Shown here: one piece after another, positions 40,055-44,286 of the stretch
Numbering within the stretch: position 1 is the stretch's first letter
Layout: each line of letters starts with the position of its first letter
Assembly: GCA_021798975.1 (NCBI GenBank)
Contig: JAJZBJ010000001.1
Location: forward strand, 161-64,160
Source of the DNA: Bacillota bacterium
Lineage (GTDB): Bacteria; Bacillota; Sulfobacillia; Sulfobacillales; Sulfobacillaceae
Length of the DNA stretch: 64,000 bases
Direction of reading: 5' to 3'
The notes under the pieces: generated by a model
What the model saw: only the letters and a program-made list of their open reading frames with translations
What the model was told of the DNA's origin: nothing
Databases searched by the model: none
Translations under genes and position numbers: made by a program

Positions 40055-41326
40055 TTATGACCGCTGGAACTGCGCCTCTTCCGTAGAGCCGGTCAGCGCA
40101 GTTGTCGACGATTGGCCGCTACTAATAGTCAAGGACACCGCATCGAAGTACCCAGCCCCCACCTCTTGTTGATGGCGGACCGCGGTGTAGCCGTCCCGCT
40201 CTCCCTGGAACTCCGCCTGCTGCAGTTTCGAGTAGGCTTGCATGCCCGTCTCCCGGTAGCTCCGGGCCAGTTCGAACATGGACCAATTCAGGGCATGGAA
40301 GCCGGCCAACGTGATGAATTGGAACTTGTAGCCCATCATCCCTAATTGGTCTTGGAAAGTCGCCAAATCGTGCTCCGTGAGCTTGTTTTGCCAGTTGAAG
40401 GAGGGCGAGCAGTTGTACGCCAGCCATTTCCCGGGAAATTGGGCATGAATCGCTTCGGCAAACTCCCGGGCTTCCCCGAGGTCGGGTGTGGATGTCTCGC
40501 ACCAAATCAAGTCTGCGTACGGGGCGTACGCCAACGCCCGGTGGATGGCCGACTCCAGCCCGGCACGTATGCGGAAGAAGCCCTCCGGCGTCCGCTGGCC
40601 GGTCAGGAAAGCCGCATCGCGGACATCAATGTCGGACGTCAGCAAGGTGGCGGCCTGTGCATCGGTTCGGGCGATGAGCAGTGTCGGCACCCCCATGACA
40701 TCCATGGCCAACCGCGCCGCCACCAAGTTTCGGACCGCTTGGCTGGTCGGAATGAGCACCTTGCCGCCCATGTGGCCGCACTTCTTCTCGGAGGATAGTT
40801 GGTCTTCAAGGTGCACCCCCGCGGCACCCGCTTCGATAAGGGCCTTGACCAGCTCAAATACATTCAGCGGTCCCCCAAATCCCGCCTCGGCGTCAGCTAC
40901 GATAGGGACAAACCAGTCGATGGGGTTGTCATGTTCCAGCCGGTCGATCTGGTCGGCCCGCATCAGGGCGCGGTTGATGCGCCGTACCATCTGCGGAACA
41001 CTATTCACGGGATAGAGAGATTGGTCCGGATACGTTTCCAACGATGCATTGCCATCCGCCGCCACTTGCCATCCGCTGAGATAGATGGCTTCCAGCCCGG
41101 CCTTGACTTCTTGAACCGCTTGATTCCCGGTGATGGCCCCCAGCGTGCGGACATAGGGCCGTTCGGACAAGAGTCCATACAGCCTCTCCGCCCCATGCCG
41201 CGCCAACGTATGCTCAACCACCAGAGAGCCTTGCAGCCGGTCCACATCTTCAGGACTGTACGGTCGGTGTATCCCGTGCCAACGGGGGTTTGTCTGCCAA
41301 TCCTCATGAATTCGGCGCTTATCCAT
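40055..41326 (-). CDS. aceA: Isocitrate lyase
   Basis: [19 protein letters not shown]...[18 protein letters not shown]. Confidence 0.98.
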
Positions 41327-42926
41327 TCATCTGCCTCCCTTGTGGTGTCGATATCACGGAACGATCGATCAGCGCCCGGTACGCGGGCTCGGTGATAAAC
41401 TCGAGGAACTGGTCATCTAAGATGGCGGCCCGCAAAATGTCCCGGGCCACAGCCGCCTCGCGTGATCCGGCGAGGTCCTGCGCGGCCGCATCCAGCCACT
41501 GGTCCAACAGCGGCCCCGTCACTAAGCGGCCATCGGTTAAGGTGACCCGGTGGTACCGCCATTGATAGAGCTGGGCCCGGGCGATTTCCGCCGTGGCAGC
41601 ATCCTCCATCAAGTTATACAGACCCACTGCGCCTTGCCCTTTTAGCCACGCGGTCAGGTATTGCAAGCTGACCGCCAAATTGTTGCGGACGCCCGCTTCG
41701 GTGACGGCTCCGCCGGGAACCTCGAAACGAAGCAACGCGGCGGCTTGGGGAGGGGTCGTGCGATTGCGCCGATGTTTTTGATGGGGGTTGGGCCCCAAGA
41801 CGTCATCGAACGCGGCTTGAGCGGTTTCCACCAAGTCAGGATGGGCGACCCAGGTTCCGTCAAATCCCTGCTCCGCCTCCCGGCGCTTGTCATCCCGAAC
41901 CCGGCTGAGCGCCAGTCGATTGACCTCCGGGTCCCGACGGCTGGGAATGAACGCGGCCATTCCGCCAATGGCGTGGGCCCCGCGTTTGTGACAGGTGTCC
42001 ACCAGCAGCTCGGCATAGGCGCGCATAAAAGGGACCTCCATGGTCACCTGGGCGCGATCCGGCAAAACAGCGTCAGGATGCTCCCGAAACCGCTTAATAA
42101 TGCTGAACAGATAGTCCCACCGCCCCGCGTTGAGACCCACGATATGGCGACGCAGCACGTAGAGAATCTCCTCCATCTGCAGGGCGGCCGTTATGGTCTC
42201 AATGAGGACCGTGGCCTTGATGGTGCCCGGCTCCATGCCCAACGCCTGTTCGGCGTAATCGAAGACCGCATTCCAGAGGTGCGCCTCCGCGTAGGATTCC
42301 AACTTGGGCAAGTAGAAATAGGGTCCCGTACCATGCCGCTGCAGGCGGGCATGGTTGTGAAATAGGTACATGCCGAAGTCAAACAAAGCCCCCGCGAGCG
42401 GTCGGCTGTCTACCAACACGTGCGCTTCAGGAAGGTGCCAGCCCCGCGGCCGCACCACCAGCACGGCCCGGTTGGGCTTCAACTGGTATTCCTTGCCTGC
42501 GTCGGTCGTATAGTGCAGCGTCCCGTCGATGGCTTGCGCCAAGTTGGCCTGCCCCTCCAACAAGTTCTCCCATGTGGGACTTGAGGCATCCTCGAAATCG
42601 GCCATAAACACACGGGCTCCCGAGTTGAGGGCGTTGATGACCATTTTGGCGTCGGTTGGGCCGGTAATCTCCACGCGTCGGTCCATCAAATCTTCGGGAA
42701 TCGGATCGACCTGCCACGTCCCGTCATGCCGGACGCTTTCGGTTTCCGGTAAAAAGTTTAGGGATCCGCCCCTGTTCAAGCGAAGCTGTGTCTCCTGTCT
42801 TCTGGTCAGGAGATGCTGTCTTTGGGCATCAAACTGTTGATGCAAGGCCTCCAAAAAAGCCAACGCCTTGCCAGACACAAGCCACTGCTGTCGGTCCGTG
42901 ACGGGGCCGAGCACCTTCACTGCCAT
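41319..42926 (-). CDS. aceB: Malate synthase A
   Basis: [41 protein letters not shown]. Confidence 0.97.
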
Positions 42927-43145
42927 GGAATCCGCCTCCTTCGATGACCATCACGCGACTATATGCTCATGATATCGAGGGCCAAAGGCACCCGAACAAG
43001 ATTCCCGGCGAATAGTCGGATTTAGGCGCCGAATAGGAAGCGCGCTTGGTTCAACGGTCGGATGATTGTCCGTCGACTTGATGCCAGGCTCGATTGGAGA
43101 GACAATAACTGGGAATCCACGATCGCAACGGGAGGTGAATGAACC

Positions 43146-43928
43146 GTGGAGAAAACCCCTTTACTCAGCGTGAGCCCAGAACCGGTGACGCTGTGGTACG
43201 AAGGCCCCACCTTTCTGGTGGCTGAGAAACCGCCAGGACTTGCGGTGCATCCGGATAGCCTGGAAGGCCCGGACAGCTTGGTCAACCGGTTATTGCAAGC
43301 GAACCGGTGGCTGGCGGAAATGGAGACGAGCCACACCCCAGGCGTGGTTCACACACTCGAGCAGGAAGACCGCGGCTTGGTCCTCGTCGCCAAATCGGAC
43401 GAAATGGCTGAGACTCTTCGCGCACAATACCGTGCGGGCCGCCTCACCTTTTCCTATCGCGTCCGCCTGCCGGATTCCGTTTCACCCCGGCAGCGGGATG
43501 ATGTCCAGATCCTGGACCATCAAACGGCCGACAACTGGGCTCTCTTTGACATTGACAGTGCCGTTGGGGATACCGGCGTGTTGCGGAGCGAGTGGCTGGG
43601 GGGCGCCGAAGACGCGTTTTTTGTCCTCTATCGGATGCGTATCCAAACCCCGGCCAAGACGCTGGAAGTCGGCCTCGCCGATCGCGTATGGCTTCCCTCC
43701 ATCGACCTGTACACGGTTCCGCCGTGAAGCGTGTGCAATGGGACGAAAGAGTTTCTTTCGGAAAATGGGTTCATCTATCGAGACCACACGTTAAGCGAGC
43801 CCGAGAATGTCGAAACCATGCGGAAATTGCGGGGTGACGAGCGCGGCATTCCGGTCATTCTGATGAATGGGCAGGTCGCCGTCGGATTTGACCGCCATCG
43901 GTTAAAGCAGAGTCTCGGCATTTACTAA
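43146..43928 (+). CDS. Probable selenoprotein: degenerate RluA-like domain fused to a glutaredoxin/NrdH domain (U-S-V-C)
   Basis: ORFs 43146..43727 and 43731..43928 are in frame; TGA 43725-43727 sits at the first Cys of a Grx CxxC (LYTVPP-U-SVC-NGTKEFL...GIPVI...GFD). Confidence 0.78.
43744..43760 (+). promoter_or_regulatory. Candidate bacterial SECIS hairpin
   Basis: CGAAAGA-GTT-TCTTTCG perfect stem; loop G lies 24 nt after the UGA. Confidence 0.6.
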
Positions 43929-43965: not shown

Positions 43966-44286
43966 ATGGCAGATTGGTCCGGCACGCTGACACTTCAGCC
44001 TGAACAAGTCGACGCGTTGGAAGCCTTTATTCGTGAACCCGACACGCGCAGGAGCGACATCTTCGACCAGGGCAGCCTGGGCCGCGACGGGGCTGTACGG
44101 GTGGACTGGATTATCAAGCACGACCTCTATGAAGGCGTGGTCGTGCATTGGAGCTTAATGTCGGCGGACGGCAACACCTTTCTATGCGGAGCGGAAAAGA
44201 GCCTCCGGGAAGCTCGCGAACTATTCGACCGCTTCACGTTGAGCCACGACGGACGCAGTTACGACATCACCGTTCGCCGCGGTTGA
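43966..44286 (+). CDS. Hypothetical protein
   Basis: GGGAGG RBS, 106-aa globular-looking ORF. Confidence 0.65.
   Translation: MADWSGTLTLQPEQVDALEAFIREPDTRRSDIFDQGSLGRDGAVRVDWIIKHDLYEGVVVHWSLMSADGNTFLCGAEKSLREARELFDRFTLSHDGRSYDITVRRG

Follow-up and report, generated by a model that had tools for sequence, protein, structure and literature searches.

We identified a single gene at 43146-43928 (+) in a 64,000-nucleotide stretch of a Sulfobacillaceae genome (contig JAJZBJ010000001.1; hereafter the window). Its product is a 260-residue selenoprotein, in which a pseudouridine-synthase fold of the RluA/RluD type is followed by a glutaredoxin (Grx)-like domain with a selenocysteine (Sec)/Cys pair. 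The architecture combines two known kinds of protein, namely the pseudouridine-synthase pseudoenzymes and the Sec-containing Grx-like redoxins; it is unnamed, and it is almost confined to Sulfobacillus relatives. In our preferred reading, to which we give a probability of about 0.55, the protein would be a (seleno)thiol-disulfide oxidoreductase that has turned a former pseudouridine-synthase domain into a specificity module for a target other than RNA.

The gene, its UGA codon and the glutaredoxin-like domain

The gene opens with a GTG start codon, and a Shine-Dalgarno-like GGGAGGTG was read from the sequence 8 nt 5' of it (43130-43137, +). The open reading frame that begins at this start (43146-43727, +) encodes 193 amino acids and ends at a TGA (43725-43727), while the frame itself stays open past that codon as far as a TAA (43926-43928), which gives 260 residues in the read-through translation. 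The coding part is therefore 43146-43925, with 260 codons including UGA194 for Sec, and the feature extends over the whole gene rather than over the interval 43146-43700 to which a previous sequence-only reading had assigned it. Pfam detected PF00849 on residues 23-113 and PF00462 in the same frame, across the TGA at 43725-43727. Homologues with Cys in place of Sec (259-263 aa) are uninterrupted and align over the full length (100%) of the 260-residue query. The AF2 model of the 260-residue protein, built on 31 homologues, had a pLDDT of 91.7 and a pTM of 0.89, and this high pTM suggests that the RluA-like and Grx domains are held in a fixed mutual arrangement.

We compared codon 194 across 30 homologous loci and found TGA in 21 of them and TGC in the other 9. 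The surrounding motif reads U/C-S-[V/I/S]-C in all 30 loci; in the window it is U194-S-V-C197 (43725-43736, +), and the UGA (43725-43727) aligns with the Cys of the nine TGC loci. Exactly one TGA was present in 20 out of 28 full-length genome matches. A SECIS hairpin, CGAAAGA-GUU-UCUUUCG, was located at 43744-43760 (+) from the regional fold, with the loop beginning 23 nt past the UGA. This hairpin, formed by a 7-bp stem and a GUU (or GGU) loop, was found in every one of the 21 TGA loci and in none of the 9 Cys loci. Among 18 distinct sequences, 96.8% of the cells were paired and three pairs of the stem showed compensatory changes (A-U to G-C, A-U to C-G); the observed covariation was attained in 0 of 500 shuffles. 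Folding the 66 nt 3' of the UGA as a whole gave no structural signal (z = 0.01); the signal emerged only on cross-locus comparison of the conserved 17-nt hairpin. At one locus (L021:5583-5630) the hairpin is GUCAAGA-GUU-UCUUGAC and is displaced one nucleotide 5'; it encodes V-K-S-F-L-T instead of T-K-E-F-L-S, the stem having been rebuilt from different codons.

The Sec machinery was recovered from the source genome (2.9 Mb, 192 contigs, 87% complete): selA (553 bits), selB (339 bits) and selD (364 bits) all scored above their cut-offs, and a tRNA-Sec (tca) is located on contig C174. The selD gene (G000 contig C15:2899-3828, locus L007) has one in-frame TGA of its own, and its product is probably a Sec-containing selenophosphate synthetase.

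The glutaredoxin/NrdH-like domain was delimited with Pfam and VIA to residues 184-260 (77 residues; 43695-43925, +). PF00462 scored 28 bits (cut-off 22.9), and VIA aligned these residues with BC3987, cGrx1 and NrdH at Z 12-12.7 and rmsd 1.3-1.8 Å. According to the secondary structure of the AF2 model, strand beta1 is formed by I186-T190, which are encoded 5' of the UGA. The redox pair U194/C197, invariant as C/U...C, is placed by the model at the N-terminus of helix alpha1, and the invariant I235-P236 would correspond to the cis-Pro position of the fold. None of the named redoxin subfamilies of NCBIfam (NrdH, YruB, Grx3, Uxx-star) reached its cut-off (Uxx_star, 43-47 vs 66 bits; YruB, 43-47 vs 88.5 bits; NrdH, 26 vs 85.8 bits). 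A redox switch is one possible reading of this domain.

Gene callers split the gene at the TGA, leaving about 30 database entries of 193-201 aa, and a 65-aa ORF opens at GTG 43731. These observations would fit a pair of genes, with UGA194 as a true stop between a 193-aa RluA-like protein and a separate, truncated redoxin of 65 aa. We consider such an arrangement highly improbable: with strand beta1 lying upstream of the UGA, it would decapitate the redoxin, which would lose this strand together with the first redox residue. Furthermore, the gene is continuous in the nine loci that carry Cys at codon 194, the hairpin tracks TGA perfectly and with compensatory changes, the genome encodes the Sec machinery, and the frame 3' of the TGA is under purifying selection, with a pairwise dN/dS of 0.03-0.15 in the Grx domain. 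Judged from these comparisons of sequence, UGA194 is to be read as a selenocysteine codon. The fusion to a Se/thiol redoxin that had been proposed earlier is thus upheld by the in-frame PF00462, by the distribution of the SECIS hairpin over the TGA and Cys loci and by the Sec machinery.

The RluA/RluD-fold domain and the loss of its canonical motifs

Residues 1-183 (43146-43694, +) are confidently predicted to form a compact RluA/RluD pseudouridine-synthase fold, on the basis of Pfam, PDB profile, VIA and hhalign comparisons. PF00849 (PseudoU_synth_2) scored 36.1 bits against a cut-off of 26.8, over the first half of the model only (positions 2-84 of 152), and the NCBIfam model TIGR00005 scored 37.8 bits against a cut-off of 192.7. 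The PDB profile search retrieved RluD at E values of 1e-14 to 1e-17, and hhalign against 40 canonical RluD-like proteins gave a probability of 99.8%. With the AF2 model, VIA matched RluD (2ist; Z 16.2, rmsd 3.0 Å, 176 residues), RluA (2i82; Z 14.2, rmsd 3.4 Å, 162 residues) and RluC (1v9k; Z 13.6, rmsd 3.3 Å, 171 residues), as well as the kinetoplastid assembly factors 7aoi_XP (Z 12.0) and 6yxx_EC. Foldseek matched 11wx with an E value of 8e-10, while the ESM Atlas feature search returned generic PF00849 clusters only. The RluA-like fold recognised in the sequence-only reading therefore recurs in the 2ist and Foldseek matches, and the hhalign probability and the Z score to RluD lie well beyond what chance would give.

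We then compared the family profile with the RluD chains of the PDB and with the 40 canonical RluD-like proteins. Motif I, E-K-P-P-G (43224-43238, +), aligns to canonical NKPaG with K28 and P29 invariant; the motif is indeed kept, and all the peptides quoted earlier lie in frame +1 of 43146-43727. The family-specific segment N53-R-W-L-A-E-M-E60 (43302-43325, +) is invariant in 31 out of 31 members, Bacillales at 33-39% identity included, and stands where canonical RluD has a variable segment that is shorter by 3 residues. Motif II is degenerate and reads H69-T-L-E72-Q-E-D75-R-G77 (43350-43376, +), with Thr for the canonical Arg and Glu for the canonical Asp. Both D144 and T147 are invariant in the canonical set (40/40), and so is the Arg of HRLD (R142) in the canonical enzymes; in the family, the R142 column is variable and the Asp column (E72; 43359-43361) is occupied by E, A, M, R, D, N or H among the 31 homologues. 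The two substitutions reported earlier for motif II hold for the window, but the change of Asp to Glu is not a feature of the family: by alignment, the Glu of the window is one state of an unconstrained column. Three residues past that column, D75 (43368-43370) is invariant in all 31 homologues and aligns with T147, the Thr of TSG.

The active-site Tyr of the canonical enzymes (Y176, invariant) aligns with Y104 (43455-43457, +), a position held by Tyr in 29 of the 31 members and by Phe in 2. Motif III had been described as not recognisable; hhalign places G141-D-T-G-V-L-R147 (43566-43586, +) on G-R-T-H-Q-I-R. Within this degenerate motif the Gly is invariant and the Thr nearly so, while the equivalents of R238, H240 and Q241 are lost and that of R243 is retained in only about 70% of the members, R147 being replaced by Ser or Ala in the other 30% or so. 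According to hhalign, the family lacks two stretches of the canonical proteins, of 13 and 12 residues and situated around PIGR, as well as the segment GHPxxGDxxYG that follows motif III. Taken together, the alignments indicate that the canonical catalytic set of pseudouridine synthases is gone from the N-terminal domain, and the catalytic degeneracy noted earlier stands.

The N-terminal domain is acidic in all 31 members (pI 4.5-6.1, median 5.1; net charge -2 to -15, median -8), and in the window it has a pI of 4.8 and a net charge of -10. The 89 canonical relatives, in contrast, have a median pI of 9.4-9.5 and a net charge of +9 to +11. The same genome also encodes a canonical RluD-like protein (HRLD...TSG, GRTHQIR; pI 9.8) and an RsuA/RluB-like protein (GRLD; pI 10.3), with net charges of +7 and +15 for these two canonical paralogues; thus, the acidity of the N-terminal domain is not an effect of the organism. 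No S4 domain was found in the 260-residue protein, and no genes related to RNA, ribosome or tRNA were found among the neighbours of the family loci.

These data bear on the proposal of the sequence-only reading that the N-terminal domain is an RNA-binding pseudoenzyme, a scaffold or chaperone whose hold on RNA would depend on whether the Sec/Cys pair fused to it is oxidised or reduced. The RluA-like fold and a domain that is conserved in the absence of the catalytic Asp are both compatible with it, and RNA-acting pseudouridine-synthase pseudoenzymes or scaffolds are documented: human RPUSD3 lacks the catalytic Asp (PMC12710931), and the function of T. brucei mt-LAF3 is independent of it (bioRxiv 10.1101/2023.02.23.529727). 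Kinetoplastid assembly factors were, moreover, among the structural matches (7aoi_XP). However, all 31 N-terminal domains are acidic where the canonical relatives and the paralogues of the genome are positive, the S4 domain is absent, the column of the HRLD Arg is variable, the two canonical loop segments and the segment after motif III are missing, and the gene neighbours are unrelated to RNA, ribosome or tRNA. The N-terminal domain is therefore unlikely to bind RNA, and we regard a redox-gated RNA binder as unlikely too; charge summed over the whole domain is a rough indicator, and RNA might yet be bound at a local basic patch.

A different role for the old cleft would draw on the residues that are kept. 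With Y104, G141, T143 and mostly R147 in place and an invariant Asp three residues off, some nucleotide-directed chemistry is possible. The protein could then be an enzyme acting on a uridine-like nucleotide, either as a pseudouridine synthase or in a new reaction, in which D75 would replace the lost Asp and the Sec/Cys pair would assist or regulate. D75 shares a loop with the canonical Asp position, only 3 residues away, and its invariance (31/31) includes the Bacillales at 33% identity; L146 of the old active site is also kept. The charged residues E19, K28, R54, E58, E60 and K83 are invariant as well, and so many invariant charges suggest a catalytic or ligand site over a mere scaffold. On the other side, D75 supplants a Thr that is invariant in 40 out of 40 canonical enzymes, about 30% of the members have Ser or Ala at the invariant Arg of motif III, the equivalents of H240 and Q241 are lost, the surface is acidic, and the RNA-gripping loops are missing. 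We know of no pseudouridine synthase with a relocated Asp, and we consider this enzymatic role quite doubtful.

Selection, distribution and gene neighbourhoods

Pairwise dN/dS in the N-terminal domain was 0.09-0.16, and 24 columns of this domain are invariant from Sulfobacillaceae to Bacillales, at 31-36% identity, those of the segment N53-E60 among them. These values argue that the N-terminal domain is under strong purifying selection and is conserved rather than decaying, in line with the pseudoenzyme inferred earlier. The word-indexed search returned 55 clusters: about half of them correspond to full-length Cys forms (259-295 aa), several of which already carry PF00849 and PF00462, and the other half to entries of 193-201 aa cut at the TGA. 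An exhaustive profile search of 1.84 billion proteins with the N-terminal domain alone recovered only 13 representatives at E < 1e-30, each of which carries the fusion or breaks off at the TGA or a contig end. The next-best profile matches were canonical RluD proteins at about 85 bits, over the first 115 positions only. From these searches, the fusion of the RluA-like and Grx domains appears to be obligate in the family.

We set aside three further candidates. P0054, which could have passed for a natural fusion of a CoA-disulfide reductase (CoADR) and an RluA-like domain, is a contig-end fragment whose linker resembles read-through intergenic sequence. P0063 (488 aa) and P0066 (506 aa) are canonical RluD proteins with duplicated segments and not family members; in both, the region from S4 to motif II is exactly duplicated internally, probably as an assembly artefact.

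Among the reference genomes, the family was present in 22 out of 35 of the taxonomic family of the window, in 1 out of 8 of the sister family and in 1 other genome of the class. Outside these, it was found in three Bacillales (Terrihalobacillus insolitus, Bacillus pinisoli and one MAG). Some genomes have two paralogues, the genome of the window has one, and Cys forms occur in cultivated strains (S. thermotolerans Kr1). In databases the protein goes under 'pseudouridine synthase', 'glutaredoxin' or 'hypothetical', and no NCBIfam model reaches its cut-off for it, in agreement with the earlier remark that the architecture was unfamiliar. Likewise, we found no paper on a selenoprotein combining a pseudouridine-synthase fold with a glutaredoxin. 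Since gene callers systematically truncate the protein at 193-201 aa and it is annotated as 'pseudouridine synthase' or 'hypothetical', selenoproteome counts of acid-mine Sulfobacillaceae and of some Bacillales miss the family.

The gene lies in three types of neighbourhood in Sulfobacillaceae, A, B and C. Type A comprises 9 loci, of Sec form as well as of Cys form, which make up one paralogous clade. Directly upstream of the family gene, on the same strand and at a distance of 67-158 nt, these loci carry a CoADR-like gene (L041:3547-4893, with equivalents in L017-L020, L022-L024 and L026). The encoded flavoprotein belongs to the CoADR/Nox family, scored 425 bits with TIGR03385, below the cut-off of 579, and has the single-Cys motif SYSAC44SIPYY. 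This adjacency suggests a reductase-redoxin pair, and type A is the only neighbourhood that hints at a mechanism; the CoADR-like neighbour occurs in that one clade, and the locus of the window does not have it. In L041, another Pyr_redox_2 gene lies nearby, together with genes for an HMA protein and a stand-alone Grx.

Type B is the neighbourhood of the window, and consists of malate synthase/isocitrate lyase (-), the fusion gene (+), a gene for a 106-aa protein (+) and terminal-oxidase genes (-). The malate synthase gene (41319-42926, -) is divergently upstream, and isocitrate lyase adjoins it in related loci (L012); together they make up the glyoxylate-shunt pair, which is conserved in the clade of the window. 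The 106-aa protein (43966-44286, +, in the window) matched no Pfam or NCBIfam family. Its gene lies 38-100 nt 3' of the fusion gene in 8 loci of the same clade, and 28 columns of the protein are invariant, a DW-I-KHD block among them. Complex prediction between a Cys-form orthologue and this 106-aa neighbour gave a score of 0.00, which counts neither way.

In type C, the fusion gene is divergent from ctaA. Other contexts were MFS/ArsR genes in S. thermotolerans and, in the Bacillales, one locus with an ECF sigma gene and one of yusE-like type. In Bacillus pinisoli (L038:3111-4976) the gene follows a block resembling yusI-gcvH-yusG-yusF-yusE of B. subtilis, which encodes an ArsC/Spx-family protein, GcvH, a DUF2553 protein, a Toprim protein and a thioredoxin-like protein. 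We did not retain a shared neighbourhood as a general guide to function, because the context differs between clades (CoADR-like gene, qox/cta oxidase genes, ctaA and others).

Proposed function and comparison with known systems

In the oxidoreductase reading that we prefer, the Sec/Cys pair of the Grx domain would perform the chemistry. The former RNA-modifying domain would pack rigidly on the Grx domain as a specificity module, and the remnant of its old cleft would hold a non-RNA ligand or a partner protein. For one paralogous clade, the CoADR-like flavoprotein encoded just upstream would be the probable source of reducing equivalents. To our knowledge, every described role of a pseudouridine-synthase fold is that of an enzyme or a scaffold acting on RNA; a fold that is kept under selection after losing the Asp and the positive charge, and that is fused to a Sec centre, points to a reuse outside RNA biology. 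The Sec/Cys pairs, the small size of the protein and the Cys forms in cultivated strains make the family directly testable.

A more specific version, which we put forward as a long shot, is a redoxin dedicated to nucleotide-bearing thiols. The old cleft would bind CoA, or a thiol or persulfide of similar kind, by its nucleotide moiety. Mixed disulfides of CoA (in protein de-CoAlation) or CoA persulfide would be reduced by the Sec/Cys pair, which the CoADR-like neighbour would recycle. If this were so, a pseudouridine-synthase fold would here have been put to catalytic use outside RNA for the first time, and the system would be to CoA what glutaredoxin is to glutathione. Known pairs of CoADR/Nox (TIGR03385) and redoxin offer a parallel, and the 9 family loci with a single-Cys CoADR-like gene upstream suggest such a pair; the pairing is, however, absent from the locus of the window, and the reductase scores under the equivalog cut-off. 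In the literature, we found no paper pairing a CoADR with a protein of pseudouridine-synthase fold.

Compared with the RluA family (E. coli RluD, RluA and RluC; PF00849, TIGR00005), the family described here shares the fold, the KPxG of motif I, the active-site Tyr, the spacing from motif II to the AK strand, and the Gly and Thr of motif III. It lacks the fixed Asp, the Arg of HRLD, the Arg, His and Gln of GRTHQIR, two loops, the segment GHPxxGDxxYG and the S4 domain. The RluA family is basic, whereas the family here is acidic and fused to a redoxin. RPUSD3 and mt-LAF3 resemble it in being RluA-family folds that act without pseudouridine-synthase catalysis; these are eukaryotic, organellar, bound to RNA or ribosomes and free of any redox fusion, whereas the present proteins are bacterial and acidic, carry a Sec/Cys redoxin and give no hint of an association with RNA.

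The C-terminal domain has its counterparts in the small Grx-like redoxins, namely NrdH-redoxin, B. cereus BC3987, clostridial cGrx1, YruB (TIGR02196) and Uxx-star, with which it shares a thioredoxin fold of about 75 residues. Both have their redox pair at the start of helix alpha1, and both have a cis-Pro loop. The motif of the family is U/C-S-[VIS]-C, where Sec occupies the first Cys position of CxxC, and not a C-terminal UXX-stop. Finally, in contrast to the small redoxins, the domain is never free-standing and always follows an RluA-like domain.
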